Of a stretch of DNA of 17,471 nucleotides, positions 3 to 16,189 are shown in pieces (position 1 is the first letter of the stretch; every line of letters begins with the position of its first letter). The position numbers were made by a program, and so were the translations under genes. The notes beneath the pieces were generated by a model. It was given only the letters and a program-made list of their open reading frames with translations, was not told the DNA's origin and ran no database searches. The stretch comes from Candidatus Hermodarchaeota archaeon (GTDB lineage: Archaea; Asgardarchaeota; Hermodarchaeia; Hermodarchaeales; Hermodarchaeaceae), in assembly GCA_016840065.1 (NCBI GenBank), contig JAEOTB010000021.1, positions 1-17,471 of the forward strand, read 5' to 3'.

Positions 3-740
3 GAAAGTGAAAGCCGTGCCCTTAACAACGCTGGGACTTATTGTCTAGCCGTAGAACAATTACCAGAAGCACTAGAGTATTTTCGGAAAGCTGACGCAAT
101 TGCTTTTGAATTGACCCACAGAGAGCTCCAAGCCCTCATCTCCATGAATATTGGTTCAGTCTATCAGAAGATGAAACAATTCGAGGAGGCACTAACGTAC
201 ATTCAGAAAGCTCTACAAATCTTTAAAGAACTCGATGATTCGGACAATGAAATTCTAGCCATTCTGGATATGGGTTCTGTACACCGGGACATGAACGAGT
301 TCCCGAAAGCCCTTGAATTCTTCAGACAGGGTCTTGGGAAAGCACGTTCAAGTGGTCAACGATTCTTCGAAGGAATGGCGCTAAACTACATTGCTTACAC
401 ATACCGATTGATGAAGCAATATGAGGAATCCCTAGACTCCTACCAAGAGGTGTTGCTTATCATGAGAGAAATAGGTAATCAATTGTATGAAGGCGTCGCA
501 TTATTCAGTATGGGAATAGTTTATCAACAAATGAGTCAACCTTTGAAAGCATTGGAGTGTTTGGAGCATTCAATCGAGGTTGATCCAAAAAGTGTACTGA
601 GATGGCTCAGTAAAGGTGAGGTGTTAGAGGAGTTGGGGCGATACGAAGAAGCAGTTACGAGTTTTCATCGCGTACTTAAAATTGCACCTAATAACGAGCA
701 AGCCCAGGAAGCCCTGCAACGACTCCAAGGACTCTTATAA
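3..740 (+). CDS. TPR protein 1 (5' partial, runs off the window edge)
   Basis: Frame is open from nt 3 (ESESRALNNAGTYCLAVEQLPEALEYFRKA...). Five ~40-aa TPR units, then a 34-aa TPR (RWLSKGEVLEELGRYEEAVTSFHRVLKIAPNN) and a capping helix. Confidence 0.9.
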   Translation, partial: ESESRALNNAGTYCLAVEQLPEALEYFRKADAIAFELTHRELQALISMNIGSVYQKMKQFEEALTYIQKALQIFKELDDSDNEILAILDMGSVHRDMNEFPKALEFFRQGLGKARSSGQRFFEGMALNYIAYTYRLMKQYEESLDSYQEVLLIMREIGNQLYEGVALFSMGIVYQQMSQPLKALECLEHSIEVDPKSVLRWLSKGEVLEELGRYEEAVTSFHRVLKIAPNNEQAQEALQRLQGLL

Positions 741-782
741 TTCCTTAATGCGATGCTCTTTGGATTTCAAACTAATACTATT

Positions 783-845
783 CGCCTTGAGCTGTGAAAG
801 GGCTGAAACTATCACAGAATGGGCTTTTAGACCCCTTTCAGGGCG
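783..845. terminator. Imperfect hairpin between convergent genes (possible terminator or structured 3' UTR)
   Basis: TGAAAGGG (795-802) pairs with CCCTTTCA (833-840); outer CGCC/GGCG and inner CTGAAA/TTTTAG pairings. Confidence 0.35.
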
Positions 846-874
846 CTCTATCGAAGAAGGAATCAACCGTCACT

Positions 875-2491
875 CTAGGTCGGAGAAGAGATGTCTTTGG
901 GGTGGAGGTGTTGATGGCAGTGGGGGCAGATCTCTCGGAGCTCCAGCCATTTCAGCAGGTGAACACGGTGGGCGAACTGGTCACAATGAGGACACCTGAC
1001 TGAATCTTCTAGTAGTTCGATGATTCCAAAGCACACAATACAGCGGTGTAAGGGTTGATTACAGACTAGACACGAAGTCGCTTCTAATGGAATTCCTTGA
1101 CCACAGTTCGGACACATCACCTCTCGTGAAGTAAAACCTGAAGCGTCTAATACTTCTACCGCGCTCTCGTCTAGACTCGGAATCGCCTCTTCAATGCGGT
1201 CAACAAGTTTCTCTTGTCTCTTAGTATGTACGAGGTGTTTAGTGGTCCACCAACCACGGCTTTCCCCCAATGCCCGTGCTACGGCTTTTTCAAAACCTTT
1301 CCTATCTAGGATTTGAGTGAGGAATGTGGCCGCGTGAGTTCCTCCAAGCTTTCCTAGGGCTTGAATACCTGACAACCAGCAGGACTTGTGGGTTTCACGT
1401 TGAAGAACGTTGATGATAGGCTCAACTGCTCTTCTATCTCCAAGGGCCCCCAAAACCTGAATTATTTTAGTTTGATACACCCAGGTTTGTTCTCGTTGTA
1501 GGGTATGAGCATGGTCGAGTGGTTCTATTACTCGTTCATCAGCAAGTTTTTCTAAATCATCTATTGCTGCGACTCTAACAAAATGTGAAAAGTCTTGGAG
1601 GAGGTGGAGAAGCGGTTCCACTGCCCTTGGATCTCCTATTCTTCCCAATGCAATCGCCGCGGATATTCGAACATAGCGGTTTTCGTCACTAAGTGTTTGG
1701 ATAAGCGCCTCCACAGCTTCTGAATCTCTGGTCCACCCTAATGCAGTTGCGGCAAAAACCCGAATTAAGATTCCATCATCGCGGAGTTTTTGGACAAGAG
1801 GTTTAACTACTGGCTCTCCTATCTCTCCAATTCCCTTAAGCACCTGTTCTATAGATATCCATTCATGTCGAAACTTTCCCATAATGTGCCCTTCAATTCG
1901 AAGCCTTCCTCCCCTAATGTACCATTCACCTCGAAAACCCCTAACAAATCGACGCTGTGCTCTTGAAATGTGATGCCATTTAACTAATACCTGTAAAATT
2001 TCATCAAGCATCCATTCCAAGGTGGTTCCAAGGATTTTCAGTGCTGCCGAATCCCCAAGTCGATGAATTGCTCTTGCAGCTTGGACACGTGTAAGAGGGG
2101 TGTTATGTTTCAAAGCTTCTACAATGTGCTTCATTATTTTCACTCGATGTTTTGGTGTTGATTCGGCAATTTTCTGGAGTGCAAAAACAGCTGCGGCACA
2201 TACGGAGTCAAAATTCTCATGCTTCAAAATAAATAATAAAGGATTTATTGCCTTTGAACCCCCTAGATGTCCTAGAGAGTGAATAGCCTTTCTTTGTATA
2301 TATACATCTTCGTCGTGAAGTGTCTGGATAAGTGGACCCACCGCTGCTTTGTCTGCTAGCTGTCCAAGTCTCTCAGCTATTAGGGCTCGTATCCCACGGT
2401 ACGTATCAGGATCCCGTAGCCTTTGACTCAGTTCATCAATGTTACCCTCCTTGAGATGTTGTTTCAGCTCATTAGTAACTAATGGGTTCAT
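875..2491 (-). CDS. HEAT (PBS-lyase-like) repeat protein with C-terminal zinc ribbon and RING finger; putative E3 ubiquitin ligase
   Basis: Repeats such as 'DENRYVRISAAIALGRIGDPRAVEPLLHLL'. C-terminus has CPNC-x10-CLVC, then C-x2-C-x12-C-x2-C-x4-H-x2-H-x3-W-x6-CPHC. ATG at 2491 follows GGAG; the ORF extends to 2518. Confidence 0.85.
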   Translation of the reverse strand: MNPLVTNELKQHLKEGNIDELSQRLRDPDTYRGIRALIAERLGQLADKAAVGPLIQTLHDEDVYIQRKAIHSLGHLGGSKAINPLLFILKHENFDSVCAAAVFALQKIAESTPKHRVKIMKHIVEALKHNTPLTRVQAARAIHRLGDSAALKILGTTLEWMLDEILQVLVKWHHISRAQRRFVRGFRGEWYIRGGRLRIEGHIMGKFRHEWISIEQVLKGIGEIGEPVVKPLVQKLRDDGILIRVFAATALGWTRDSEAVEALIQTLSDENRYVRISAAIALGRIGDPRAVEPLLHLLQDFSHFVRVAAIDDLEKLADERVIEPLDHAHTLQREQTWVYQTKIIQVLGALGDRRAVEPIINVLQRETHKSCWLSGIQALGKLGGTHAATFLTQILDRKGFEKAVARALGESRGWWTTKHLVHTKRQEKLVDRIEEAIPSLDESAVEVLDASGFTSREVMCPNCGQGIPLEATSCLVCNQPLHRCIVCFGIIELLEDSVRCPHCDQFAHRVHLLKWLELREICPHCHQHLHPKDISSPT

Positions 2492-2574
2492 TGAAAACTC
2501 TCCATATTGTACGCACATTATTGCTATCTAAGCTTGGTTCGCAGTTGTGGAGTACCATCCTCTTGAACTCCATC

Positions 2575-2655
2575 TCATTTGTGAGTTGTGATGTCCTAGG
2601 AACTAAAGTGTTGATGGTAGTGGGGATAACCCCGTCTTAGCTCCAACCGATTCAT
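2575..2655 (-). pseudogene. Decayed remnant of the C-terminal half of a RING domain
   Basis: Ungapped match to 875-955 at offset 1700 (34/47 nt over 2608-2654). Translates MNRLELRRGYPHYHQHFSS*DITTHK* versus LKWLELREICPHCHQHLHPKDISSPT*. Confidence 0.75.
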
Positions 2656-2857
2656 TTGTTACAGTTCCATTTCGCCTCAACCATATATCCTTCTTTTATT
2701 ATCAACATATGGATATATAATTAGGCTTCTCCATTGTAGAAGAAAGACAACAAGAAGGTTCTAAGTCACGGGTGTTCTAGACCTATTCAGTAACCTATTT
2801 CTACGAGATTACCTGACCCTAAGCGATAGTTGAACCTTCTAACTGGAGGATTGTCTT

Positions 2858-3775
2858 TTGAAGCTTGGATTAGTCACACATGCTGAATCAGTAGAAAAAC
2901 GCGCATTTACGGATCTTATCCAAGGATTGGATCTGAAGCCACCGACAATCATCAAACCGAACTGGGGCTTCTCCGTCGTGTTCACCGAAGCGATGGTCCT
3001 GGACTGGGTCCTGTCAGCGCTAGATGGTGAAGTCCTGGTTGTGGAGAGCTATGGCTGGGCACGCTGCAAGCAAGCCGTCGAGGAGGGGCTCTTTGGCTCA
3101 TTCGAGCCTGATGACCTACGGGCGAGTGACCAATGGTTCCTGGAATACTCGGGTATAGGGGACGTCCTGGCCAAGCATGATGTGGAGTTTCTGAACATCA
3201 CTGAGGAGGTCTGGGCGGGGCGCATCGCGGACCCCGCTGTCATCAAGCAGGGAGTGGAGGAGCTGTTTCCGGGAGTGCGCAGTGAGGAGATGTACGCCTT
3301 TGTTCCATCACGCTTGTATGAGCTACGGGGTGGTTCCTTCCTGAGCTTGGCCAAGCTCAAGTTCATGCCCCCTGAGACCCTTCATCCCATGATTGGGATT
3401 TCCCTGTCGATTAAGAACCTTTTCGGGATGCTCCCTGGACCAAGGAGGGGCAAGTTCCACGGGAAGGAGAACAGCCTGATGAACCTGAGCATCGTAGACA
3501 TAAACAAAATCTATCGTTCCCTCTTTACTGTCAAAGGGGTTGTCGAAGCTATTCAGACCGCTTCGAGAGGGATGAGTCTGGAGCCTGTGATTTTCGAGAA
3601 TCCCGGTCTAGCCTGGGCGTGTGCGGATACCGTGGAACTTGATGCGACGGTGGCCGCCCATGTTGGGCTTGAGCCATTGGAAGTAGACCACATAAGGCTC
3701 GCTGCAGAGTGTTTCGGGAAATGGAGCAAGGAAGGTGTAGCTTTTGCCCGCGATAACGCATTATCAACTTCTTAA
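2858..3775 (+). CDS. DUF362 domain-containing protein
   Basis: Motifs IIKPN, VVES, LAKLK, SLSIKNLFG and KFH, plus a C-terminal D-x-V-x-L-D. GGAGGA precedes the TTG start. Confidence 0.8.
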   Translation: MKLGLVTHAESVEKRAFTDLIQGLDLKPPTIIKPNWGFSVVFTEAMVLDWVLSALDGEVLVVESYGWARCKQAVEEGLFGSFEPDDLRASDQWFLEYSGIGDVLAKHDVEFLNITEEVWAGRIADPAVIKQGVEELFPGVRSEEMYAFVPSRLYELRGGSFLSLAKLKFMPPETLHPMIGISLSIKNLFGMLPGPRRGKFHGKENSLMNLSIVDINKIYRSLFTVKGVVEAIQTASRGMSLEPVIFENPGLAWACADTVELDATVAAHVGLEPLEVDHIRLAAECFGKWSKEGVAFARDNALSTS

Positions 3776-3792
3776 CGGTTTGATACACCTGT

Positions 3793-4545
3793 ATGTTCAA
3801 GGAGATCCAGCCTTTGACGAAAATGACAATTGATGATGATGTAGCCCCTCTTTACTCCGAGGGCAAGGACCTCTTAATGAAATTCAAACAGGCCGACCGT
3901 GGTGGGAAACGCGAGTTAATCGAGTCGGTCTGGAAACTGCTCTCCAAGCTCTCCGACGCTGCCCGGGGCTGTCACAGGGAGGGGCGGCTAGAGAGCGCCT
4001 ACGCCCTCTACAAGCTCGTTTTAATGTATTCAAGGGTTCTTGTGGACAAATATAGTGAGGGGCAGCACCTGAACAACCTGGGAATGGTGTGCCGGGCAAT
4101 GAAGCGGTATGACGAAGCGCTCAAGCATTTCTCTAAGGCACTCAAGATTGCCAAGGCCATGGACTCTAAGCGAGAAGAAGCGGCTGTCCTCGGCAACTTG
4201 GGTCTTGTATATCTCAAGCTGGAGCAGCACCAGGAGGCCCTCGACCATCTCCAACAAGCGCTCCAAATGATTCAGGGGCGAGGGAATACCCGTGGTGAGG
4301 CAATCGTCCTACATAACATTGGTGATGTCCATTACCAAATGCAGAGATATCAGGAGGCGCTCGAATATTTCGAGAAGGCGCTGACCCTCAATCCGAACCA
4401 GTTTGCGAGCTGGTACCTAAAGGGTTGTGTTCAGGAAGAGGTAGGGAATCTAGCTGAGGCGAAGGCAGCCTATCAACGCACCTTGGCTCTGAACCCAAGT
4501 CATGCTGAGGCAAAAGAGGCACTCAGACGGCTTGAAACAGCCTGA
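3793..4545 (+). CDS. TPR protein 2 (shared N-terminal module + TPRs)
   Basis: 40-aa units EGQHLNNLG, EAAVLGNLG and EAIVLHNIG, then a 34-aa TPR and cap. The true start may be ATG 3823. Confidence 0.9.
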   Translation: MFKEIQPLTKMTIDDDVAPLYSEGKDLLMKFKQADRGGKRELIESVWKLLSKLSDAARGCHREGRLESAYALYKLVLMYSRVLVDKYSEGQHLNNLGMVCRAMKRYDEALKHFSKALKIAKAMDSKREEAAVLGNLGLVYLKLEQHQEALDHLQQALQMIQGRGNTRGEAIVLHNIGDVHYQMQRYQEALEYFEKALTLNPNQFASWYLKGCVQEEVGNLAEAKAAYQRTLALNPSHAEAKEALRRLETA

Positions 4546-4546
4546 C

Positions 4547-4583
4547 CGAGTCCCTTATGAGGATGACGTCCTGATATTCACCT
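4547..4583 (+). repeat. 37-bp dispersed repeat, copy 1 (directly upstream of TPR protein 3)
   Basis: cgagtcccttatgaggatgacgtcctgatattcacct; 33/37 identical to 7554-7590. Confidence 0.85.
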
Positions 4584-4590
4584 ATTAGGG

Positions 4591-5502
4591 ATGGAATCGA
4601 TGACCACCATAAGTAATCAAGAAATCAAGCAGCTCTTGATTAGGGGTAGAGCGCTTCTCGAGGCGTTCTGGCAGAGCGACAAGTCGGGGAAGCAGTTTCT
4701 TGCCCCACAGGTGGAGGAACTCGCTGGGAAGGTCAGTCACAAGGCATCGCTCTGCGAGAACCGTTACCTGATGCAGCACGCCTATGACCTCGCTTTCCTA
4801 CTCCTGGCTTGTTACAAAGCACTTGGGAACCAACGTGCTGAATTCCTCCAGCTCCACCACATCGGTGACTTATACCGGAAACTGCGTCGATACGCTGAAT
4901 CCTTTGACTTTCTCCAACAAGCGCTGGCCAAGATCCGAGGGGGGATTTGGATCATTGAGGATGGGCAGCCACGGTTTGAAGCAGAAAACCCCCTCTGGGA
5001 AGCTATCGTCCTTAACTCCCTCGGGCTGACCTACCTGGAATGGGGTAAGCTAGAGGAGGCACAGGACCACTTTGAGCAATCGCTTCCTCTTCGCCAAAGA
5101 GTAGGAGATCGACGCGGTGAAGGCACAACCCTTCACAACCTGGGCAGGATGTACCGGGTAAAGCAGCAGTACCAGAAGGCTCTTGAGTTCTTCGAGCAGG
5201 CCCTGAAACTCCAGAAGAAGCATGGCTCTCGCCTAGAGCAAGGCATCACCCTTAGCTACCTAGGTCGCTCATACTGGGAATTGGGGAAGCTGAAGAAGGC
5301 AACCAAACTCTACAAACAGGCACTTAAGATACTTCAAGAGGTGGAGTACCCAGACCTAACCCACCTGTTGCTCAAGGGTGAAGCCTTGGCAGCACTTGGA
5401 CGCCGAGAGGAAGCCATCGCAAGCTACCGCCACGTCCTAACCATTGATTCCAAATTCCAGGAGGTTCGAGAGGCATTAAAGCAGCTAGGAATCGACACCT
5501 AG
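4591..5502 (+). CDS. TPR protein 3 (shared N-terminal module + TPRs)
   Basis: Units EFLQLHHIG, EAIVLNSLG, EGTTLHNLG and QGITLSYLG; terminal TPR and cap 'VREALKQLGI'. Confidence 0.9.
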   Translation: MESMTTISNQEIKQLLIRGRALLEAFWQSDKSGKQFLAPQVEELAGKVSHKASLCENRYLMQHAYDLAFLLLACYKALGNQRAEFLQLHHIGDLYRKLRRYAESFDFLQQALAKIRGGIWIIEDGQPRFEAENPLWEAIVLNSLGLTYLEWGKLEEAQDHFEQSLPLRQRVGDRRGEGTTLHNLGRMYRVKQQYQKALEFFEQALKLQKKHGSRLEQGITLSYLGRSYWELGKLKKATKLYKQALKILQEVEYPDLTHLLLKGEALAALGRREEAIASYRHVLTIDSKFQEVREALKQLGIDT

Positions 5503-5596: not shown

Positions 5597-7234
5597 CTAG
5601 TTTTCTTCATGAGACTTCTTCTGCTTCTTCAATATCGTGATAGCGATTAGAAAGGAGACTCCGCAGAACACTGATAGAGAGACGATTAGGCCCAAATTAG
5701 CTCCATTCCATGGTATGGTTGGCGTGGTTGACGTAGAATCCCCTAGTATGGAGATTTCGATTTCCGTTGAGGGACCGTGTCCGTAAGACGAGGCCTTGAC
5801 AACATTGGGAGTCTGGTTCTGCATGTAGCTTGTGATGAGGTACGCCACATCCGCTGATAAACCGGTGAATGTATCGGTGACCGTGGTATTTGTTTCATCG
5901 TGTAAGCTCTGGTATGTGTGCCAGCCATGTGCATCGTGCAGGGCAAGAGAGACACCTATCGTGTGATTTGAGGTCTTCTTGATTTGGACTGTGAAAGTAT
6001 CAGGTGGAGATAGTAATTTGTGGATATGGATGCCGTAATATCGAAGGGAAATCGTATCATTGAGAAGGGAAGGATCGTTGACGGTGTCGTACTGGCTGAT
6101 TCGGGCATCTAGTCCTTCGAAGCCGTAGAGGTTGTCACCGAATCCCAGCTCATCAATCGTGACTGCTGTGATCCAGTTCAAGTAGAGTTCGTTGAATGTG
6201 ATGTCGTTGCCTGCTGCTTGCAAAACAGCTTCAACGCCATAGGCCCCATCTGTAGGTTCGGTTATCAGGTTTCGGAGTATATCTATACCGTAGTGCTCTG
6301 CTATGTAGAAGGTAAAAAGGTAGGCTCCACCATAATCGATGGTCATGGGCAACTCTGGGCTGCCAAACATATTCCAGTATAAGAGGGAATCTTCGGGATG
6401 CTGTAGAAAGTCGGGTACCCAAGGTACGATGTTATCATGGGGTGCGAGGTACCCTGCATAATATTCAGCATACTGTGATAATCCCTCTAAGAGGTAATGT
6501 GGTTCATCCCACTCGTTGTTGAACCAGATGAGATGTTGAAACTCATGGGCGACATACGGCAGCCAGGTCCTGTAGTAGAGGTAGACCATTTCACACATGT
6601 TAGAGTATGGCAGGTCCAGTTCGTTTCTTTCAGAATAGTAATTAGCGCTGCGGGAAAGCAAGATTACGATGTGAGGATCGCCGTCGATATCACCTAAGGA
6701 TCCGTCTGGGTGCCCGGATAGATCTGTGACTCGTGGATAGATCACGCTATCAAACTCGTCCCGAATCCCCTCCGCCTGCTGAGTAGCAGCTGTTTCCCCT
6801 AGCTCTGTTATGCAGCTGTGTTCCATGAACACATAGCCGTGCGTCCCTACCGCGAGCAGCGTTGCGTTGATTTCATTGAAGAGTTGGTTGTTGAAATCCC
6901 AGACCCAGAAGCTGCGCTGATGACCAACCTGCAAATCCCTACGCGGATAATGGTCATGATTCATTCCAGAAGTCAGGGGCGTGGCATCTTGCACATCATG
7001 ACTTGGATGCTTCAGGAGCGGGCATATTTCAGGGCGCCTTGGTACGTTTGTATTACCAAGGTCTTGATGGAGCTCATACGAAGGCGCATCAAGGCTTGTA
7101 TCTAGAAAGAAGCCAACGGTGAGTACCGCTGCGATAAACACGAAGAGCAGACAAAGCGAAACGACTATCCTCCCCTTACCTCCATGTCTAGCAGGAGTCA
7201 CTGCAAAACCTGAACTCCAACGGCGCGAAGTCAA
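5597..7234 (-). CDS. Secreted, membrane-anchored zinc metallopeptidase (M30/hyicolysin-like gluzincin)
   Basis: N-terminal hydrophobic helix, GDIDGDPHIVILL, AHEFQH (HEXXH), downstream LLEGLSQYAE and DYG motif. Thr-rich linker, C-terminal TM helix and KKQKK. GAGGTG lies 8 nt before the TTG. Confidence 0.8.
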   Translation of the reverse strand: MTSRRWSSGFAVTPARHGGKGRIVVSLCLLFVFIAAVLTVGFFLDTSLDAPSYELHQDLGNTNVPRRPEICPLLKHPSHDVQDATPLTSGMNHDHYPRRDLQVGHQRSFWVWDFNNQLFNEINATLLAVGTHGYVFMEHSCITELGETAATQQAEGIRDEFDSVIYPRVTDLSGHPDGSLGDIDGDPHIVILLSRSANYYSERNELDLPYSNMCEMVYLYYRTWLPYVAHEFQHLIWFNNEWDEPHYLLEGLSQYAEYYAGYLAPHDNIVPWVPDFLQHPEDSLLYWNMFGSPELPMTIDYGGAYLFTFYIAEHYGIDILRNLITEPTDGAYGVEAVLQAAGNDITFNELYLNWITAVTIDELGFGDNLYGFEGLDARISQYDTVNDPSLLNDTISLRYYGIHIHKLLSPPDTFTVQIKKTSNHTIGVSLALHDAHGWHTYQSLHDETNTTVTDTFTGLSADVAYLITSYMQNQTPNVVKASSYGHGPSTEIEISILGDSTSTTPTIPWNGANLGLIVSLSVFCGVSFLIAITILKKQKKSHEEN

Positions 7235-7355
7235 ACATGTTACACCTCAAACGATGACCAAGTTACACCTACAAAGTCAGTTGGAGTAAGACGGCTGGAA
7301 CACCTATTATCCTATGTAATAGAACGCCTTGTTCAACAGAATAGAACAATGATTC

Positions 7356-7480
7356 CCCAAAACACACAATGCACCGTTGTACAGGCTTGCTAAACGCAGG
7401 ACCAGACGCTATCCCTTTGGTAATCACCTCGCCACACTCTATGTATTTCGCATCTCAGTGAATTGAACAATTCTCCATAT
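7356..7480 (-). pseudogene. Decayed remnant of a HEAT-RING paralog (start region + zinc ribbon + first RING Cys pair)
   Basis: 7445-7356 translates YIECGEVITKGIASGPAFSKPVQRCIVCFG, which aligns without gaps to CPNCGQGIPLEATSCLVCNQPLHRCIVCFG. 7462-7480 matches the RBS/start region 2490-2507 (17/19 with one gap), with ATG changed to ATT. Confidence 0.75.
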
Positions 7481-7553
7481 GGAAAACAGCCTGTACAGCA
7501 TATTTTTTTCTTAGAATTCGATCCCTTATATTTCAAGTTCGAAGCTTTTTGCT

Positions 7554-7590
7554 CGAGTCCCTTACGAGGTTGACGCCCTGATGTTCACCT
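7554..7590 (+). repeat. 37-bp dispersed repeat, copy 2 (no + strand gene follows)
   Basis: cgagtcccttacgaggttgacgccctgatgttcacct; 33/37 identical to 4547-4583. Confidence 0.85.
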
Positions 7591-7601: not shown

Positions 7602-8456
7602 TTAGTCGATGATGAGACCTCGTGAGTACTTGAGTGGTGGTTGTTTGGGTTCGCCGTGAACATCAGGGTCCCAGTAAAGTTCATCACAAAAGCTCCCGGA
7701 GAAGAGGGTTTGCGTTCTCCTCCCTCGCAGATGTTTGAATCGATAGCGCCCGACTGTCATTCCTAAATAGCAGGTGGCATAATACCCGAGCTCAGGGTCA
7801 TCCACATCCTTGAGGGACTCGTAAATAACACAGCGGTCAAACTTGGCCAAGAACTTGCTCTCATCGAAGTGGGCGATGGCGAAGGAGAAGCCACCATCGG
7901 TGGAGGAGGACTTGATGAAACTTTCTCGAAACTGTTGAAATGTGATCGTAACCGGTGCTCGTTTCGCTTGTTCTTCCCCAAGATAGTTCACGAACGCCTT
8001 GTACGTTTGGATAGCAGACTCTCTCCCTAGCACGTCAACCAAGGCTTTGATGGCGTTGTATTGGAGCAGATTATCTCCACGGTTGAAGTTTAGGTAGGAT
8101 ACAACGGCTTTTCCTGTTTCCTTGTCGTAGGTGTCGAGAGGTCCCAGATGATTCAAGAGAAAATTGAATGCCTTATCCCTCAGGGTCAAGTTTTTCTGGA
8201 GGTGGGGGAAGTGCTCCGTGATTTCCTCACGGTTGACAATATGGGATGCGGCTTCAGCTGGGGAGGTGTCGGGCAAGAGGCTGAGGCGGTGGATGAGTCG
8301 TTCAACGAACTGGTCGAGAATCGCGGGTTCTTGGAGCTTCAAGGCCTCCAGCATTGTGTCAAGGCGGTAGCACACCTTGAAGAAATATTGGTGTACATCG
8401 AATTCCTTTGTCGCTTTTGGGTCATAACCCTTGTACACCTCATACTCGGAACTCAT
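7602..8456 (-). CDS. L-2-amino-thiazoline-4-carboxylic acid (ATC) hydrolase-like family protein with N-terminal extension
   Basis: C-terminal 'FDRCVIYESLK...LGYYATC...RRTQTLFSGSFCDELYW' fits the three-Cys / RTxTLxxGxxCD pattern of this family. Confidence 0.65.
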   Translation of the reverse strand: MSSEYEVYKGYDPKATKEFDVHQYFFKVCYRLDTMLEALKLQEPAILDQFVERLIHRLSLLPDTSPAEAASHIVNREEITEHFPHLQKNLTLRDKAFNFLLNHLGPLDTYDKETGKAVVSYLNFNRGDNLLQYNAIKALVDVLGRESAIQTYKAFVNYLGEEQAKRAPVTITFQQFRESFIKSSSTDGGFSFAIAHFDESKFLAKFDRCVIYESLKDVDDPELGYYATCYLGMTVGRYRFKHLRGRRTQTLFSGSFCDELYWDPDVHGEPKQPPLKYSRGLIID

Positions 8457-8619: not shown

Positions 8620-9246
8620 TTGAGTGACTTGGATACTCGAACGCTTCAGCTCATCACGAAGGGGAAATCCCTCTTGTCCGAATACAGGAACTGTGATTGG
8701 GATAACCAACCTAAGCTAGCCAAGACGATCCGTTCGTTTCTTCGGCGGCTCAGAGAAATCAGCCATCACCTCAAATGGGAGGACAAGCTACACGACTGCC
8801 TCACGCTCTATTCGTTGGCACAGGAGCTTATCCAGACGATTAGGGACCAGGGGAGTGAGCTAGATGGAGTTCTCCTCCATGACTTGGGTACGGTCTACAC
8901 CGCCCTAGGACAGTACTCTGAAGTCCTTAGATATCTCCAACAGTCTATTCAGATCCAGGAGGAGGAGGGCACCAGACTGGGCGTGGCTATAGCTCTATCT
9001 AGTTTGGGCAGGTTGTACCAGAAGGTGCAACGCTACGAAGAGGCTTTGGATTGTTTTGAACAAGCGCTCAAACGAGTTCCTGCCCTTGGGGGATGCTGGA
9101 TAGCCAAGGGAGGTGTCTTGGAGGCGATGGGGCGGCGTGAGGAGGCGATTGCTAGTTACCACCGGGCCCTCAGGATACGACGGTGGCACAACGAAGCACG
9201 GGGGGCGCTACAACGACTCGGTATTGATGTGGACAACGAAAGCTAG
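8620..9246 (+). CDS. TPR protein 4 (shared N-terminal module + TPRs)
   Basis: Start TTG-AGT at 8620 chosen by alignment to paralog N-termini (ORF open from 8572). Units DGVLLHDLG and VAIALSSLG, terminal CWIAKG TPR, cap 'ARGALQRLGI'. Confidence 0.88.
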   Translation: MSDLDTRTLQLITKGKSLLSEYRNCDWDNQPKLAKTIRSFLRRLREISHHLKWEDKLHDCLTLYSLAQELIQTIRDQGSELDGVLLHDLGTVYTALGQYSEVLRYLQQSIQIQEEEGTRLGVAIALSSLGRLYQKVQRYEEALDCFEQALKRVPALGGCWIAKGGVLEAMGRREEAIASYHRALRIRRWHNEARGALQRLGIDVDNES

Positions 9247-9274: not shown

Positions 9275-9493
9275 ATGTCAAAAATCCCCTCACTTCTATG
9301 TAATCAGATTCTCACTACACTGAAGGAGGCAGGCAAACCATTAAGTGTGAGTCAAATTTCCCGGCTCACGAGTATTTCCGAAAAGGAGGTTACTGTCAGC
9401 ATCCAGCACCTTATGAAACAGGGTAGGATAAGCTCTCCGAAGTCTAGCTACTTCACGGTTACTGATCCTAGTGCAATCGGGCGTCGTGTGTAG
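9275..9493 (+). CDS. Small winged-helix DNA-binding protein
   Basis: ILTTLKEAGKPLSVSQISRLTSISEKEVTVSIQHLMKQGRISSPKSSYF is a three-helix plus wing pattern. Confidence 0.75.
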   Translation: MSKIPSLLCNQILTTLKEAGKPLSVSQISRLTSISEKEVTVSIQHLMKQGRISSPKSSYFTVTDPSAIGRRV

Positions 9494-9500: not shown

Positions 9501-9887
9501 TTAGGTGTGTTCACTTCTTGACGCGGCGTCTCTGGCTATCTGTTTTAGGAGTCTAATTACTTCACTTCCCCTCGCTTTGAGCTCAGTTTCGGTGAGGGTG
9601 TCTTTCTCTGGGCAGAGGTCATCCACGGTGATTCCTTCGTCTTCGCTGTAGATGACGGGGTAGATTCGGCAGCCTTGGGGTCTGTGCTGGTAGACGGTGC
9701 ATTTGCATTGTATCACGTCAAAGAAGACGCAGTACCCCTTGTGGTTTCGCAGTTGGGCGAAGCCATTGCTGTCAATGTGTAGGAACTTCTCTTTCTCGTA
9801 GCCTATTGCCTTTAGTCGTTCTATGTCTGAGTTAGAAAGCAGCATCTCGGTTTCTTCGCAGCATAATCCACAGCGGGAGCAACGCAT
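9501..9887 (-). CDS. YkgJ family cysteine-cluster protein (CxxCxxCC)
   Basis: MRCSRCGLCC...CVFF...CTVYQHRPQGCRIYP...C. ORF extends to 9905. Confidence 0.9.
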   Translation of the reverse strand: MRCSRCGLCCEETEMLLSNSDIERLKAIGYEKEKFLHIDSNGFAQLRNHKGYCVFFDVIQCKCTVYQHRPQGCRIYPVIYSEDEGITVDDLCPEKDTLTETELKARGSEVIRLLKQIARDAASRSEHT

Positions 9888-10008
9888 AGGATAGGTTCTC
9901 CTCATACTATCTTTAGTAGTTTCCCTGCTTCCCTACAAGAAGAAAAGTTCTCAGATTCAGCATGGCTACTGGCCCAAACAGGTGAGGGTTCTAATCGGTC
10001 CCTGTTAT

Positions 10009-10056: not shown

Positions 10057-10713
10057 TTGAGTACTGGAAAAGATGACAAGCTGGAACAGTTGCTCATTCA
10101 TGGTAACACCGTATTGAAGATGTTCCTTGAGGGTAACGTAGAAGCCCGGCGTGGGATGCAGCAGTCCTTACTCCAGCTCATCGAGGATATCACTCGAGAG
10201 TCCCAAGCCTACTACAGAAAGGACTGGCTCGCCGAAGCCCATCGCCTTTACGCGTTTATGCAAGAGCTAGGAAAACAGCTCACCCTAACCAACATCGAAG
10301 CCAAAGGCTGGACTGGTATGGGGAAAGTTTTCGCCAAGATGAAACGATACGAAACAGCCATTGACAACCTGTTAATGGCCCTCAGCCTCGTGCAAGAGCT
10401 AGGCGACAGGAACGAGGAACGCAACATCGCCTACATTATAGGCCTCGCTTACGAGGCAAAGGAGAGCTATAATAAGGCAATAGAATACTTCCAGAAATGT
10501 CTGGTGATTGATCGAGAGCTTAACGACCCAGTAGGAGAGGCTGCGATTCTCTGCCGGATCGCCAAGTGCTACCAGCTTATGGGTCAGTACAACGAAGCAC
10601 TAACCAGTCTACAGCAAGCCTTGAAGATAACCCGGGAAACAGGTAGCCGGGAGGGAGAAGGTGCTATAATCACCATGATTAAAGCAGTGAACAAGGAAAT
10701 GGCCCAACGCTAG
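10057..10713 (+). CDS. TPR protein 5 (shared N-terminal module; lacks the 34-aa terminal TPR)
   Basis: 40-aa units EAKGWTGMG, ERNIAYIIG and EAAILCRIA, then a partial EGAIITMIK unit. Confidence 0.9.
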   Translation: MSTGKDDKLEQLLIHGNTVLKMFLEGNVEARRGMQQSLLQLIEDITRESQAYYRKDWLAEAHRLYAFMQELGKQLTLTNIEAKGWTGMGKVFAKMKRYETAIDNLLMALSLVQELGDRNEERNIAYIIGLAYEAKESYNKAIEYFQKCLVIDRELNDPVGEAAILCRIAKCYQLMGQYNEALTSLQQALKITRETGSREGEGAIITMIKAVNKEMAQR

Positions 10714-10751: not shown

Positions 10752-10898
10752 CTATCTCATCGCCCCAGTCTTCCTACATCTGCAACAGAAGAGGTTTCTT
10801 CGCTTGATTTTAGTTTCTCTGCAGATTGGACATTCTTCGTGCCCACAATAGATGCATTTCCTACTGTAGGGGCTTCTACCAATTTCGGTTCCTATCAC
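10752..10898 (-). CDS. 48-aa Cys-rich putative zinc-finger microprotein (not in the ORF track)
   Basis: MIGTEIGRSPYSRKCIYCGHEECPICRETKIKRRNLFCCRCRKTGAMR*; three CxxC motifs. AAGGAGGTG lies 10 nt upstream of the GTG. Confidence 0.6.
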   Translation of the reverse strand: MIGTEIGRSPYSRKCIYCGHEECPICRETKIKRRNLFCCRCRKTGAMR

Positions 10899-11023
10899 CT
10901 TCGGGTGACACCTCCTTCCTTGTAGGTATCTTAGGGATTGGTTGATGAAAAGGATTTCGTTACACTTCTACAGATACTTGAACCTTGCATCATTGTTTCC
11001 TACTAGGCAGGTTTTTCCTTCGG

Positions 11024-11071
11024 GAAGATTATATAGTCCTCCCTCAACATTACTAATGGAGTTGGAGCCTA
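11024..11071 (+). promoter_or_regulatory. Putative BRE/TATA promoter and leader of TPR protein 6
   Basis: GAAGA-TTATATA with the TATA box 43 nt before the TTG; GAGTTGG-N6-TTG. Confidence 0.45.
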
Positions 11072-12043
11072 TTGAGTTCGGCAGCCGATAGCAAGGTCTC
11101 AGCCCTCGTCAAAAGAGTCAAGGACCTGGTTGCCCAATACCAGAAGAGTTCAGACCCTACTCAACAACAGAAACTGATCGAGAAAATATCCGAGAATGTG
11201 AGGAAACTCATCAAAGAGGCAAAAAGATTCTACGAGGAGGGTCAGTTTCAGGAGTCACTGAACCTTTATGCACCCCTACTTGACCTTGTAAGCAGGCTAG
11301 GCATCCGAAGCCTAGAGGGAACCTTAAACGAGGGGGTCGGAACCCTCTATCTAGCCTGGAGGGATTTCACGAAGGCTCTCAAGTTCCTACAGCAGGCAAG
11401 GGACATAGCCCAGCTTAGCGGTGACATTGACGCTGAAGACTCTGCCCAGTACCGGATAGCAGAAACCTATCGGAGAATGAAGCTCTACAAAGAGGCCCTG
11501 AAGATACTCAAGGCAATTCTCAAGAACAAGCAGAAGAAGGACCGTCATGGGGAGGGGATTGTCCTTAACCAGGTAGGTTTGGTCTATCTTTTCTGGGGAA
11601 AACACAAGGATGCAATGAAGCATTTCCAGAAAGCCCTTGACCTCTTCCAGCTGATAGGTGAACAGCATCAAGAAGCGGTTACTCATGCTTTCATCGGGGA
11701 AACTCTTCGGAAAATGGGGAAATACGTTGAGGCTGTTGATCATCTCTCAAAGGCTATGCCTCTTCTTATCAAGGAGAATGACCGGGAGAACTTGGGTCTG
11801 GTCTACTTCAACTTAGGTTCCTTGTACGTCATCAATAAACGTTACACAGAGGCCCTCGAAGCCTTTGAGCTCTCAAACAAGATTAATCCTAGGGGTGCCC
11901 GGAGTTGGGCTGCACGAGGTTGGCTACTGGAGCAGCTAGGTTTCCCAGACAAGGCTATTGCCTGCTTTAAGCGAGCAATTGCTTTGGATCCAGAAAACAA
12001 GGGTATCCGAGACCAACTGACAAAACATGGAATCTACATCTGA
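11072..12043 (+). CDS. TPR protein 6 (shared N-terminal module + TPRs)
   Basis: Five ~40-aa units, terminal SWAARG TPR, and cap 'DPENKGIRDQLTKHGI'. Confidence 0.9.
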   Translation: MSSAADSKVSALVKRVKDLVAQYQKSSDPTQQQKLIEKISENVRKLIKEAKRFYEEGQFQESLNLYAPLLDLVSRLGIRSLEGTLNEGVGTLYLAWRDFTKALKFLQQARDIAQLSGDIDAEDSAQYRIAETYRRMKLYKEALKILKAILKNKQKKDRHGEGIVLNQVGLVYLFWGKHKDAMKHFQKALDLFQLIGEQHQEAVTHAFIGETLRKMGKYVEAVDHLSKAMPLLIKENDRENLGLVYFNLGSLYVINKRYTEALEAFELSNKINPRGARSWAARGWLLEQLGFPDKAIACFKRAIALDPENKGIRDQLTKHGIYI

Positions 12044-12074
12044 AGATACGAAAGCGGTGTGGCATTCAACTACT

Positions 12075-12737
12075 TCATTTGGTCAGTTTTTGTAATTCTT
12101 TTAGTAGTTCTGGTTTTTCAAGTAGAGCTGCGAAGATGCCCACATATTGGATGATTTTTCTTAGAGAAACTATGGAACCAGTGGAAATCATTTCCAATGT
12201 TTTTCGATCCCCACTCTCAACTAGCCGTTCTAGACCTTCCTCTCTCGCTTGGTCAAAGTGGGTGAGGATTTCTAGGATTGCTTTCTGCGAGGGCGCCTGG
12301 CCATCAAACATATGGCTTAGTAGATTGCCTATTCTCTTGGCGATGGTTTTACCCTTGCGGGTTTCCCAGTATTTCGGTGGGTCCTCGACGAGGAGGAAGA
12401 AGTCGGCGGTTCGGGAGAAGAGCTTCTCGGTGACCGCCTTGCCTATAACGAGGCGCTGCCCTGCTGGGATGATGAGTCCAGCCTTCTCGAGCACCTTCAA
12501 GTAGCGATAGATGGTTTTATCCGACTTTGGGTCGATTCCAGCGTCGTTTTCTGCGGCTTCTCTGTATGCCTTTTCAAGGTCTCGGACAGTCATTGGTCGC
12601 TGGCGTAGGACAATCAGCATGGTCCAGTATTTGGGGTTGAAGATTAACCTTATCGCTGATTTATCCTTGACGATTTGTACTGGGACGGGCTTGAAGGTTA
12701 CGACATCTCGGTAATTTTCTGGGTTGGTTGCTGACAT
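12075..12737 (-). CDS. ArsR-like winged-helix transcriptional regulator with C-terminal helical domain
   Basis: 'NPKYWTMLIVLRQRPMTVRDL...KSDKTIYRYLKVLEKAGLI...EKLFSRTA'. Likely ATG 12737; the ORF extends to 12839. Confidence 0.8.
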   Translation of the reverse strand: MSATNPENYRDVVTFKPVPVQIVKDKSAIRLIFNPKYWTMLIVLRQRPMTVRDLEKAYREAAENDAGIDPKSDKTIYRYLKVLEKAGLIIPAGQRLVIGKAVTEKLFSRTADFFLLVEDPPKYWETRKGKTIAKRIGNLLSHMFDGQAPSQKAILEILTHFDQAREEGLERLVESGDRKTLEMISTGSIVSLRKIIQYVGIFAALLEKPELLKELQKLTK

Positions 12738-12875
12738 GACTTTATCACTGGTTTCTTTTCTTCTGTATCTTATAGTACATGTGGAATGGTACTCTTTTTC
12801 CTTTCCGTTTTGCCATCCTGTATTTCTTGTTGATACCAATACTCTTTTATAGGATATAAAGCTATTGACATTACG

Positions 12876-12914
12876 TGAGAATCACTTTCTCAATATAATG
12901 AGAAACATGTTCTC
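12876..12914. promoter_or_regulatory. Paired palindromic operator GAGAA-N5-TTCTC x2 (23-bp spacing)
   Basis: GAGAATCACTTTCTC (12877-12891) and GAGAAACATGTTCTC (12900-12914). Confidence 0.75.
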
Positions 12915-12958
12915 TGAAACAACACCCAAAAACCAAAAGAATAACTCAGGTGAAAAGA

Positions 12959-13801
12959 ATGATTTGCACCCAGCACCTAAAGACCAAAACAGCCCTCCTA
13001 GCTTTATGCATTCTCGTCCTCTCCTACGGAACTATTCCCCAAACAACAGCAGCTGTTCTCTGGTCTGACAACTTCAATGACAACAACTACAATGGGTGGA
13101 CTGTCAAGACTGGGGCCTTTACCACCGCAGATAGCACTCTTCGGTGTACAAGTATAACCCTTAGCGCAATCCATCACTCTTCAACAGTCGCCACTGGAAC
13201 CTGGAGCATTGACTTCGTATTCAGTGGTGCGATTCATGTGGCTGCAGTCTACTTTGCAGTTGGAGCAATCAACGATATTATGGGTGATCAAGGGTATCAA
13301 GTAACTATTCACAACTACGGTGTAACACTCTACGAGGTTACAGACACAGCGACCCACCTCCTTGACAGCTACACAGCATCGACGACTCTCCAAGGAAGAC
13401 AGAGCATTGATATTACTCGCGACATTGGTGGGCTCTTCAGAGTTTACGTCAACGATTCACTCGTGATGGAGGCAACGAATACAGTACACACCACAATCAA
13501 CTACTTCCTACTCCACATGTATGAGGATGACTCCGTGGACAATATCGTTGTTAGCAACACCGTCGACGTCACTCCCTCCACCACTGACCCTGACACCAAT
13601 ACTCCGACAGACACCCCTCCAGCCATCCCAGGTTTTCCAGCAGCCGCCATCATCATCGGATTGGTTCTGTCTGTTCTCCTAGTCATAGTGATTAGACGAC
13701 GCCAACCAAGCACACAAGCGAAAGCGCCTATCTTGCCAATTGTCTGTAGTGATTCTGTAGCTGCTGATGGGAAACACATTCTCAATACGATGGGAAACTG
13801 A
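12959..13801 (+). CDS. Secreted surface protein A (probable beta-sandwich/ConA-like domain) with IPGFP-TM-RRR sorting tail
   Basis: Signal peptide, WSDNFNDNNYNGWTV..., DNIVVS, Thr/Pro linker, AIPGFPAAAIIIGLVLSVLLVIVIRRR. AGGTGA precedes ATG 12959 (GTG 12950 is an alternative). Confidence 0.8.
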   Translation: MICTQHLKTKTALLALCILVLSYGTIPQTTAAVLWSDNFNDNNYNGWTVKTGAFTTADSTLRCTSITLSAIHHSSTVATGTWSIDFVFSGAIHVAAVYFAVGAINDIMGDQGYQVTIHNYGVTLYEVTDTATHLLDSYTASTTLQGRQSIDITRDIGGLFRVYVNDSLVMEATNTVHTTINYFLLHMYEDDSVDNIVVSNTVDVTPSTTDPDTNTPTDTPPAIPGFPAAAIIIGLVLSVLLVIVIRRRQPSTQAKAPILPIVCSDSVAADGKHILNTMGN

Positions 13802-13806
13802 TTCTC
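13769..13806. promoter_or_regulatory. Second paired operator GGGAA-N5-TTCTC x2 (23-bp spacing)
   Basis: GGGAAACACATTCTC (13769-13783) and GGGAAACTGATTCTC (13792-13806), in the same position relative to the paralog's start. Confidence 0.7.
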
Positions 13807-13853
13807 TGAAACAACATGAATACATCACAACACAACTATCTCAGGTGAAAAGA

Positions 13854-14621
13854 ATGATTTACACCCCGCAAGCAAAGACCAAGACTATCCTTCTTGTACT
13901 GTGTTTACTCGCTCTCACATATGGAGTATCTCCTCAAGTTGGGGCAGTGATGGTCTGGTCTGACAACTTCAACGACACCAATTACAACGGATGGACTGTA
14001 GAGACAGGTGCCTTCAGCGCCGCAGACAATACGCTCCGTTGCACCAGTGAAGCTATGGGCGTAGTCCATCATCCCTCAACTGTTGCATCAGGAACCTGGA
14101 GCTTTGATTTTCTATTTACAGGTTCGCTACATGTCTCCATCATCTATTTTGCCGTTGGAGTGATGAGTGACCTAATGGGCAACCAAGGATACCAGATTAC
14201 AGTCAACAATTACGGATTCACGCTCTATGTAGTAACCGATTCGGCAACCACAACCCTTGACAGCTACACTGCGCCTGGAGGCATTCAAGGAAGACAGCAC
14301 TTCGACTTCACACGTGACGCAGGAGGACTCATCCGAGGATATCTAAACTCCACACTAGTCGTAGAGGCAACGAACACAGAACACACCACCGTGAACTACT
14401 TCCTAGCCCATATGTTCCAAGACGAATCACTTGATAATGTCGTCGTCAGTAACACAATCGACATCACTCCCACCACAACAGACACAGGCACTGGGGCTGG
14501 TACAGAAACACCCCCTGGAATCCCTGGGTTCCCCGCTGCAGCGATCCTTGTTGGCTTGTTCCTGTCAGTTCTTCTAGTCATGGTGATTCGACGTCATCGA
14601 CCAGCTTCTAGCAGGGAATGA
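13854..14621 (+). CDS. Secreted surface protein B, tandem paralog of 12959-13801
   Basis: Collinear with paralog A throughout and has the same CTCAGGTGAAAAGAATGATTT start context. Tail GIPGFPAAAILVGLFLSVLLVMVIRRHR. Confidence 0.82.
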   Translation: MIYTPQAKTKTILLVLCLLALTYGVSPQVGAVMVWSDNFNDTNYNGWTVETGAFSAADNTLRCTSEAMGVVHHPSTVASGTWSFDFLFTGSLHVSIIYFAVGVMSDLMGNQGYQITVNNYGFTLYVVTDSATTTLDSYTAPGGIQGRQHFDFTRDAGGLIRGYLNSTLVVEATNTEHTTVNYFLAHMFQDESLDNVVVSNTIDITPTTTDTGTGAGTETPPGIPGFPAAAILVGLFLSVLLVMVIRRHRPASSRE

Positions 14622-14636
14622 CCCTACCATTCGGAA

Positions 14637-14695
14637 TATCCGTGGTGCTCCTGTTCGAAACGAGTAGGGACATCACGGATACTATGTTCTTTTTC
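14637..14695 (+). terminator. Long hairpin followed by a U-rich tract
   Basis: TATCCGTGGTGCTCCTGTTCG-AAA-CGAGTAGGGACATCACGGATA (21-position stem, 4 G-U pairs, 1 mismatch), then TTCTTTTT. Confidence 0.6.
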
Positions 14696-14809
14696 TCAAC
14701 CACATTCGTTTTCTACACATGCAGAGTTTCATCAACTGAGTAGGCTGGTTTTCTTTTGAAGTGTAAGTTTTTATTTTCAGGGTTCACAATACTAAGTGAA
14801 GGTGGTGTT

Positions 14810-15037
14810 ATGGGCTATCAAAGAGAGACGCTGGGTCTGGGACTTGACCTTGCGTTGAGCAAAAGGCAGAAAACCCTGATTCTTGGTACATTCTTCGTAT
14901 TACTCCTTCTCCTTATCCTCGCGGTTTTCTATGGACCACCTCTGATATGGATGGTCTTTGCCTTCCTGATTATTATCCTATGGGTTTCTGTACTCTGTTA
15001 TGTATCCTCCCGTAGGGGTGACAGGGGAGTATCCTGA
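14810..15037 (+). CDS. Small two-TM membrane protein, unknown function
   Basis: Two hydrophobic helices separated by YGPP, with basic flanks. GGTGGTG precedes the ATG. Confidence 0.65.
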   Translation: MGYQRETLGLGLDLALSKRQKTLILGTFFVLLLLLILAVFYGPPLIWMVFAFLIIILWVSVLCYVSSRRGDRGVS

Positions 15038-15129
15038 CATCGATGGGTTTGACACACTAGGCACTCACTTAGTGCTCTTTTAGAAAGTGTCTTATAATTC
15101 CAGGGAATATTAGAAGGGAGGGAAGCCCA

Positions 15130-15726
15130 TTGAGCTCCTTGAAGGATGAAATAACAGAGTTAACAAATCAGACAAAGAATTTGTTAGAGGGTTACGGGGC
15201 TGGTGATACGCTCCGTGAGGAGGCCTTACGTGCAAGTGTTCCTAAACTCATGGATTTAATTACTCGGTGCTACAAGCAGAGAAAGTTCCACTACTCCCTT
15301 CAGCTGATTGCGGTTTTACAGGTTGTGGGGAGGACTCTTGAGATTGGTCGCATCGAGGCCCATGCCTATACTCTTCGGGGAATCATTCAACATCTCTTGG
15401 GGTTATTCTATGAGGCCTTGGCAAGTTATAGGAGGGCTGTAACCATATACAACAAGGAGAACTATGACCCGGGGAAATGCACGGTACTTCAGAGGATGGG
15501 GGAAACCTTCCTTGCACTCCTCCGCTACCAAGAGGCTCTGATTAGTTTTGAAAGAGTTCTCCAAATCAGCCCCGACAATATAGTATGCTTATTGGGTAAG
15601 GCAAACGCTCTGGATCTCATGGGGCGAGAAGCCGAGGCGATTGAAAGTTTTCGTAGAGTCCTTGTTATAGATCCTGAAAATAAGTCCGCTAGACAAGGGC
15701 TGGCAGGTCTTGGAGTGGAAGTATGA
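15130..15726 (+). CDS. TPR protein 7 (shared N-terminal module + TPRs)
   Basis: Units EAHAYTLRG and KCTVLQRMG, terminal CLLGKA TPR, cap 'DPENKSARQGLAGLGV'. TTATAA at 15092. Confidence 0.9.
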   Translation: MSSLKDEITELTNQTKNLLEGYGAGDTLREEALRASVPKLMDLITRCYKQRKFHYSLQLIAVLQVVGRTLEIGRIEAHAYTLRGIIQHLLGLFYEALASYRRAVTIYNKENYDPGKCTVLQRMGETFLALLRYQEALISFERVLQISPDNIVCLLGKANALDLMGREAEAIESFRRVLVIDPENKSARQGLAGLGVEV

Positions 15727-15769
15727 AAGCAACATCAGTCCAGATCTTGTACTCGGAAGGGTAGTTCCT

Positions 15770-16189
15770 ATGGAATCGAGTACTGAGGAAAAAATCGAGG
15801 AGTTACTAACTTATGGTAGGGATCTTGTTACTAGGTACAACAAGACTAGGGATCCCTTTGCCCGGCTAGCTATGAAGCCGCGGATGCGTCAGCTCAAAAA
15901 AGTACTCGGTCAGGGCGTAAGGGTCTACTACAAGCGGGAACAGTATCGCCGTGTTATCTGCTTTGCTAAGCTTCTTCTAGATGTGACAAGTGTGCTCAGG
16001 GTCCACGTTGATCGTGCTGTAACTCACATGAACCTAGGTCGAGCCCATCGGAAATTGGGAGAGCTAGAGGAGGCGTATAGCCATTTCGAGAAAGCACACC
16101 TACTGTTACAACTACAGGAGGAACCTGGGCTCCAAGCTAGAGCTTTGAGTCACATGGCGTCTGTGGAAAGAGAGATGAAAGGAGATTAG
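15770..16189 (+). CDS. TPR protein 8 (shared N-terminal module, shortest member)
   Basis: MESSTEEKIEELLTYGRDLVTRY..., unit RAVTHMNLG and a partial QARALSHMA. Start chosen by paralog alignment (ORF open from 15710). Confidence 0.8.
   Translation: MESSTEEKIEELLTYGRDLVTRYNKTRDPFARLAMKPRMRQLKKVLGQGVRVYYKREQYRRVICFAKLLLDVTSVLRVHVDRAVTHMNLGRAHRKLGELEEAYSHFEKAHLLLQLQEEPGLQARALSHMASVEREMKGD

Follow-up and report, generated by a model that had tools for sequence, protein, structure and literature searches.

Gene content of the locus

We analysed a stretch of 17,471 nucleotides (the window), which is the entire contig C116 (JAEOTB010000021.1) of a Hermodarchaeia (Asgard) genome bin, G000. The window encodes eight TPR proteins, all on the forward strand and each with Pfam TPR matches: TPR1 (3-740; its 5' end is off the contig), TPR2 (3793-4545), TPR3 (4600-5502), TPR4 (8620-9246), TPR5 (10057-10713), TPR6 (11072-12043), TPR7 (15130-15726) and TPR8 (15770-16189). 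On the reverse strand it carries one intact gene (875-2491, start possibly at 2518) for a putative single-chain ubiquitin ligase (E3) composed of HEAT repeats, a zinc ribbon and a RING domain (HEAT-ZnR-RING), and two decayed remnants of RING genes. An earlier note on this DNA had described these features, and all of them were recovered in our analysis. It had also proposed that TPR and RING genes were repeatedly duplicated and lost together; our results favour two separately expanded families that turn over gene by gene. About 13 unrelated genes are scattered among the TPR genes, so the TPR set is not a tight array.

The HEAT-ZnR-RING protein and the RING family

The HEAT-ZnR-RING protein has a PBS/alphaRep-type HEAT solenoid followed by a zinc ribbon with the spacing C-x2-C-x10-C-x2-C and a RING with the spacing C-x2-C-x12-C-x2-C-x4-H-x2-H-x10-C-x2-C, which provides eight zinc ligands. 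Its predicted structure is helical from residue 7, with no N-terminal beta-propeller. The full protein had no close relative in 5.8 billion sequences, and an exact look-up returned no record.

As the earlier note had stated, ubiquitin, E1 and E2 genes are absent from the window. It had suggested searching the host genome for them and had held that their lack would speak against its proposal. The host is an Asgard archaeon, and its contig C69 carries an operon for a small RING protein, ubiquitin ending in GG, E2 and E1, together with an ESCRT cluster; the E2 has the loop-4 PY. Since C69 holds ubiquitin, E2 and E1, the proposal does not fail on this ground. Four JAB matches were also found in the genome.

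The window RING and the operon RING are 33% identical over 48 aa, with identical ligand spacing. In the Caldiarchaeum subterraneum RING, a hydrophobic residue in loop 1 (I30) and a Trp in the helix (W58) matter (PMC5654768). The window RING keeps the loop-1 Ile and the helix Trp at these E2-contact positions. The linchpin Arg or Lys after the last Cys (R69 position) is replaced by His here and by Gln in other HEAT-clade RINGs; judged from sequence, the His may lower the expected E3 activity without excluding it. The best matches of the ZnR-RING profile in the structural database were catalytic RING-H2 E3s (RNF24, E 4e-9, and Arkadia), and over the full tail the ZnR+RING profile matched WDR59, WDR19/IFT144, WDR24 and MIOS (E 2e-5 to 3e-4).

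G000 has 32 RING genes, on 17 contigs and in 20 clusters. Nineteen of them have predicted membrane segments, four have HEAT repeats and three have leucine-rich repeats (LRR); targeting modules come in cis, since most RING genes carry their own membrane, HEAT or LRR part. The bin (2.59 Mb, 131 contigs, completeness 84%, contamination 5%) is mildly chimeric, with many contig pairs at 75-85% identity, which slightly inflates such genome-wide counts. The RING family is pan-Asgard: the ZnR-RING profile matched 62 of 81 Asgard genomes, with 0-35 matches per genome. HEAT-linked RINGs form one moderately supported clade, in which the sister of the window RING is an open reading frame (ORF) of 66 residues that encodes a RING alone, at the same locus in the congener G003. 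A RING-less HEAT-ZnR gene is conserved.

The TPR family

The seven complete TPR genes share an N-terminal module (N-module) of about 77 aa, detected with leave-one-out hidden Markov models (HMMs) at E 3e-13 to 4e-6. Because of this common module they are true paralogs and not generic TPR proteins; TPR1 was assigned to the family on its C-terminal part only. The N-module is 17-29% identical among members, with one invariant residue, and profile comparison found no similarity between the N-module and the RING. G000 has ten module-bearing members, seven on C116, two on C56 and one on C96. The three congeners used for comparison (G001, G002 and G003; assemblies about 80% complete, with contigs of 2-18 kb) gave 4, 5 and 13 N-module matches (5 in G002 and 13 in G003). 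The other 37 Asgard genomes, 15 of them from the sister genus, gave no match; the four positive genomes among 41 all belong to one genus. Among 1.84 billion proteins searched with the profile, about a dozen matched the whole module at their N-terminus; those traced were from the same genus, and an atlas search with the N-module returned generic TPR clusters only.

The TPR paralogs are 13-33% identical to one another. Their orthologs in the congeners are 65-80% identical and syntenic, and form clades with 100/99-100 support. Since the paralogs are divergent and the orthologs are syntenic in fully supported clades, the duplications predate the sampled species. TPR5 is conserved in the congeners, whereas orthologs of TPR1 and TPR4 were not found in the three congeners; the TPR4 region was confirmed by an independent assembly. 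TPR8 measures about 140 aa in the window, as it does in G002 and in a third relative, whereas the G003 protein is longer. The ratio of nonsynonymous to synonymous substitution (dN/dS) of TPR orthologs was 0.06-0.19, compared with 0.07-0.21 in neighbouring genes, as whole-gene and not site-level values from two or three orthologs per paralog with dS near saturation. It was 0.13 for TPR3 and its G003 ortholog (78% identical), 0.12 for TPR5, 0.07-0.09 for TPR6 and 0.13-0.17 for TPR7, in which the N-module evolved faster (about 0.3). These ratios indicate that purifying selection maintains the TPR copies, in contrast to fast-diversifying immune receptors.

The window TPR proteins (159-323 aa) are filled by TPRs, with no NTPase family among the matches listed and no effector domain. 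The model of TPR6 is all-helical (pLDDT 95) and consists of a three-helix N-module and a TPR superhelix. Its top structural matches were Rap proteins and the TPR domain of LGN/Pins, with RapH aligned over its full length (Z 22-24). Fold searches with the TPR and HEAT proteins gave generic TPR and HEAT matches only.

Gene remnants and turnover

Remnant 1 (2583-2654, reverse strand) corresponds to the 3' end of a HEAT-clade RING gene and is decayed: it contains a stop and has lost cysteines. Remnant 2 (7342-7389, reverse strand; weakly extended to 7456 by the family profile, nhmmer E 0.17) is a decayed zinc ribbon with the first Cys pair of a RING. When 14,046 genome tiles were compared as DNA with the 3' end of the HEAT-RING gene, the two remnants ranked 1 and 2. 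A protein RING HMM run over six frames missed both, so their detection needed the DNA comparison. A Cys-rich segment at 10752-10898 (reverse strand), between TPR5 and TPR6, was rejected as a third RING remnant because it ranked 8,956 of 14,046 and is an intact, conserved ORF. This ORF of 48 aa has a GTG start, is intact in G002 and G003 and belongs to no Pfam family, and it appears to be a conserved small zinc-finger-like gene.

Head-to-head with remnant 2 lies, as the earlier note had observed, an orphan copy of a TPR upstream segment, here the TPR3 upstream region (7524-7590, forward strand); it contains an AT-rich TATA-like stretch and is followed by no TPR gene. Its positions 7554-7590 are 89% identical to 4547-4583 in the TPR3 upstream segment (4547-4590, forward strand) from which it was copied, and the likeness reaches 7524 against the upstream region of a congener TPR3.

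The interval between two conserved anchors, the DUF362 gene (2858-3775, forward strand) on its left and the CxxCxxCC gene (9501-9905, reverse strand) on its right, occurs in five versions across relatives, from empty to the seven genes seen here. In the congener version (C21 and G002:C12) there is a membrane RING instead, and TPR1-4 are missing from the interval. Elsewhere, a TPR2 ortholog is shorter by 81 internal residues, or about two repeats. Gains, losses and pseudogene scars across relatives, together with ortholog clades in the tree, show birth-and-death evolution. The turnover is real but gene-wise. Since each RING piece is cut on its 5' side by upstream DNA of another gene, displacement would fit better than joint duplication. 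Tandem duplications are reported to be common in Asgard archaea, among them cases in which different duplications lie next to one another and are under purifying selection (10.1101/2025.07.24.666526). In G003 (contig C82, L066:627-830), the decayed 3' end of a TPR4-like gene was found beside a peptidase gene, that is, a TPR remnant in a congener.

Linkage between the TPR and RING families

The co-localisation and copy-number comparison with family profiles, which the earlier note had suggested, gave a mixed answer: the families are adjacent at two G000 loci, whereas in congeners loci were found with either family but not the other. In a receptor-ligase model along the lines of the earlier note, the TPR proteins would act as exchangeable receptors that bring substrates to HEAT-RING E3s, or as regulators of these ligases; their N-module would dock on the HEAT solenoid, as the F-box docks on Skp1-cullin, and their TPR groove would select the substrate.

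Several observations favour such a partnership and weigh against separate expansion of the two families. A second locus, on C56 (L030:881-6232), has two TPR genes of the family interleaved with a HEAT-ZnR gene and a pair of HEAT-RING genes, all on one strand. At both G000 loci with soluble HEAT-RING genes, a family TPR gene lies within 0.5 kb. Of the three TPR loci, two have a RING gene within 3 kb (p 0.02); when the window is excluded, p is 0.11 if every RING counts and 0.01 if HEAT-RING genes alone are counted, a restriction chosen post hoc. In G003, a further TPR gene of the family faces the orthologous RING piece head-to-head. At the C56 locus of G002, whose flanks and HEAT-ZnR gene are retained, both TPR genes are cleanly missing and an LRR gene is at the HEAT-RING position. 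All complete paralogs have the N-module, ubiquitin, E1 and E2 are present in the genome, and TPR subunits of eukaryotic E3s (APC/C and CRL2-APPBP2) are among the generic fold matches. In addition, because the congener assemblies are incomplete and fragmented, missing neighbours in them are not proof of absence, and the dN/dS values are whole-gene ratios with dS near saturation.

However, the link is broken in both directions. In G001 a HEAT-RING gene lies between LRR genes, with no TPR gene on its 5-kb contig, and the HEAT-RING gene on C5 has no adjacent TPR gene. The retained HEAT-ZnR gene at the C56 locus of G002, where both TPR genes are gone, also speaks against a link, as does the congener version of the window locus, with its membrane RING and without TPR1-4. 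The TPR genes persist under purifying selection in G002 and G003, where no intact HEAT-RING gene was found among the RING contigs examined of these roughly 80% complete genomes. Five other TPR-family loci have no RING gene on their contigs of 2-20 kb. RING genes are genome-wide and pan-Asgard, whereas the TPR family is restricted to one genus; the window HEAT-RING protein lacks close relatives in the 5.8 billion proteins, whereas TPR5-8 are genus-wide. With its low identity and single invariant residue, the N-module would be a poor common docking motif. LRR genes are also found near RING genes (p 0.01-0.02), and such clustering is expected for plastic regions. Prediction of a complex between the HEAT-RING protein and TPR2 gave a score of 0.00, which is no answer and evidence in neither direction. 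Of the proposal in the earlier note, gene turnover at the locus is supported, as is the association of the two families by a second interleaved locus, but joint duplication and loss is not supported. A joint receptor-ligase system is possible, although exchangeable receptors docked on the HEAT solenoid appear rather improbable.

The C56 locus is followed by a gene for a WD40-like membrane protein and four small GTPase genes with two probable partner genes. Elsewhere on C56 (26311-30300, L031), two LRR-RING genes stand beside a generic TPR gene and are conserved with it in G003; this neighbourhood is steadier than that of the window, and its TPR protein is unrelated to the family.

Other genes in the window and the assembly

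Accessory genes interspersed in the variable interval include a membrane-anchored HExxH-type metallopeptidase-like gene (5597-7234, reverse strand; weak Pfam match only) and an ATC-hydrolase-like gene (7602-8456, reverse strand), which has a different place in the interval in congeners. Winged-helix genes are found at 9275-9493 and 12075-12839; the larger is 82-86% conserved in congeners and the smaller was seen only here. Two tandem exported proteins (12950-14621, forward strand), 63% identical to each other, have a C-terminal Thr-rich linker, an IPGFP motif and a membrane helix; they belong to no Pfam family and have seven matches in the genome. A SnoaL-like gene (16192-16659) abuts TPR8; G003 lacks it, and so does the third relative compared for TPR8.

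A spacer motif of about 37 nt (803-839) recurs at C21:838-874, the matching position on a congener-type contig, and at C77:563-591, above the level of shuffles. A recombination-site motif shared among spacers, as in a cassette array, was rejected because the best 12-mer occurred in 4 spacers, equal to shuffles.

The right end of the window (17345-17471) overlaps contig C52 by 127 nt, and the next gene is Hef-type-helicase-like, as in congeners. A direct junction of C116 and C56 was rejected since the contig ends do not overlap. Two contig pairs, C21 with G002:C12 (117 nt) and C44 with G002:C38 (127 nt), overlap at 100%, which indicates that bins G000 and G002 come from a common assembly and that contigs were swapped between them. 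A recent paralogous duplication of the DUF362 gene was likewise rejected, because the second copy is on C21. Scans of genome-contig and metagenome-contig collections found no relevant loci.

Discussion

We consider, with a probability of about 0.58, that the window is part of a plastic chromosome region in which two separately expanded families turn over gene by gene and in which the HEAT-RING protein is a self-contained E3. Both families would be gained and lost gene by gene among unrelated accessory genes of this Hermodarchaeia chromosome. The HEAT-ZnR-RING protein is most likely such a single-chain E3, as its architecture and the machinery encoded in the genome suggest: the HEAT solenoid would bind the substrate and the RING would recruit E2~ubiquitin from the C69 operon. 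The TPR proteins would be old, genus-specific, small soluble binding proteins with no enzyme domain; since purifying selection acts on them, the paralogs probably have individual partners, either proteins or peptides. Insertions and deletions would have left the remnants and the orphan upstream segment as scars. An obligate partnership of TPR and RING proteins would not be needed.

Clustered paralogs with a common N-module, presence/absence turnover and pseudogene scars recall the F-box/SCF and NLR clusters of eukaryotes. The window differs from them in having no NTPase or effector domain, no conserved ligase linkage and genes under purifying selection; no cullin (PF00888) match was found in the G000 genome, which is 84% complete, in a search run without a positive control. 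The analogy with immune receptors drawn in the earlier note is weakened by this selection, by the age and stability of the paralogs and by the lack of NTPase and effector domains.

It is also conceivable that the TPR proteins are effector-less sensors, adaptors or decoys of a conflict system based on TPR-CHAT, a caspase-like protease. With ligand bound, they would engage module-bearing TPR-CHAT proteases by way of the N-module; the system would be immune-like but proteolytic, and would not depend on the RING gene. Two members in G003 (contig C213; L070:8188-11616 and 12112-14793) are tandem N-module-TPR-CHAT proteins with intact His and Cys motifs, and the C56 TPR proteins, which end right after the repeats, fall in the clade of these members (95/99). 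Presence/absence turnover would suit this idea, as would the report that Hermodarchaeia lack CRISPR-Cas (PMC13700489). However, module-bearing CHAT genes occur in one of four genomes, CHAT is absent from all window proteins, and most window TPR proteins close with capping repeats of their own and show no sign of truncation. The sole CHAT match in G000 is a protein of 1,140 aa without the N-module and with no His/Cys motif in its last 300 residues, and PADLOC gave generic TPR and HEAT matches only. No paper was found that treats Asgard, CHAT, caspase and TPR together. We regard this explanation as improbable. The G000 protein (L103, C128:11471-14875) is a single-copy TPR-CHAT of about 1,140 aa found in most Hermodarchaeia genomes searched, and possibly a pseudo-protease.

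In a more general form, the N-module would be a docking domain that makes the TPR proteins exchangeable receptors, either for a HEAT-RING E3, as a cullin-free analogue of SCF, or for TPR-CHAT proteases, in the manner of death-domain adaptors. We consider this unlikely. If true, N-module docking would represent a modular receptor system of a kind not described in Asgard archaea.

In the GATOR2/SEA and IFT-A complexes, zinc tails pair with one another. The solenoid-ZnR-RING proteins might similarly be structural and not catalytic, pairing their zinc tails in a coat- or tether-like scaffold to which the TPR proteins are accessory. This would agree with the match of the ZnR+RING profile to whole zinc tails of WDR59, WDR19/IFT144, WDR24 and MIOS, with the Gln or His at the linchpin of the HEAT clade, with the WD40-like membrane protein and small GTPases beside the C56 locus and with the conserved RING-less HEAT-ZnR gene. 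GATOR2/SEA (WDR59, WDR24, MIOS) and IFT-A (IFT144, IFT122) proteins likewise have an alpha-solenoid followed by a zinc finger and a RING-like tail, but the window protein lacks their N-terminal beta-propeller, has another repeat type and is species-specific, unlike a core scaffold. The best structural matches are catalytic E3s, and in the spacing of its ligands the window RING is identical to the operon RING, relatives of which show activity in vitro (PMC5654768; 10.1101/2023.07.25.550441). A scaffold role is thus quite improbable.

Finally, it is very improbable that the TPR proteins are Rap-like (RRNPP) regulators, each paralog contacting one target through the three-helix N-module and binding a signalling peptide in the TPR groove, because the full-length match to RapH and the many paralogs under purifying selection, which would fit, are offset by Rap scores that differ little from those of TPR proteins such as LGN/Pins and APPBP2, by a likeness generic to TPR superhelices at 12-20% identity and by the lack of an evident small exported-peptide gene downstream of the TPR genes among ORFs of at least 50 aa (shorter ones were not surveyed).

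Returning to the self-contained E3, its closest described relatives are the small RING finger (srfp) E3s of archaeal operons (Caldiarchaeum subterraneum, PMC5654768; Helarchaeia, 10.1101/2023.07.25.550441), which share with it the ligand spacing, the loop-1 hydrophobic residue, the helix Trp and cognate ubiquitin, E1 and E2. The window RING differs in being fused to a zinc ribbon and a HEAT solenoid of 450 residues, in lying outside the operon, in its His linchpin and in being one of about 30. Eukaryotic solenoid-RING/U-box E3s (listerin/Ltn1, plant PUB-ARM, CHIP) similarly join a helical-repeat region and a C-terminal E2-recruiting domain in one chain. The likeness is probably convergent; the window repeats are of the prokaryotic PBS/alphaRep type, and no RWD domain was found. 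Archaeal RING E3s, the enrichment of solenoids in Asgard archaea and side-by-side tandem expansions are already published. Lineage-specific expansions in Asgard archaea (10.1101/2025.07.24.666526; PMC13734099; 10.1101/2020.10.19.343400) resemble the present case in tandem duplication, side-by-side expansion, purifying selection, domain shuffling and restricted solenoid families, but no description of the present TPR family or of the HEAT-ZnR-RING fusion was found in the literature searched, which lacks many subscription papers.

In conclusion, archaeal ubiquitylation has so far been tested only with tiny operon RING proteins. The approximately 30 RING proteins of this genome, in which the RING is joined to HEAT, LRR or membrane modules, suggest that diversification of single-chain, substrate-specific E3s had begun in Asgard archaea, and the HEAT-RING protein is a ready test case since its own E1, E2 and ubiquitin are encoded in the same genome. 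If the TPR proteins were exchangeable receptors, the logic of multi-subunit E3s would be older than cullins. As far as the present evidence goes, the cluster mainly illustrates that gene families in Asgard genomes turn over in a eukaryote-like manner.

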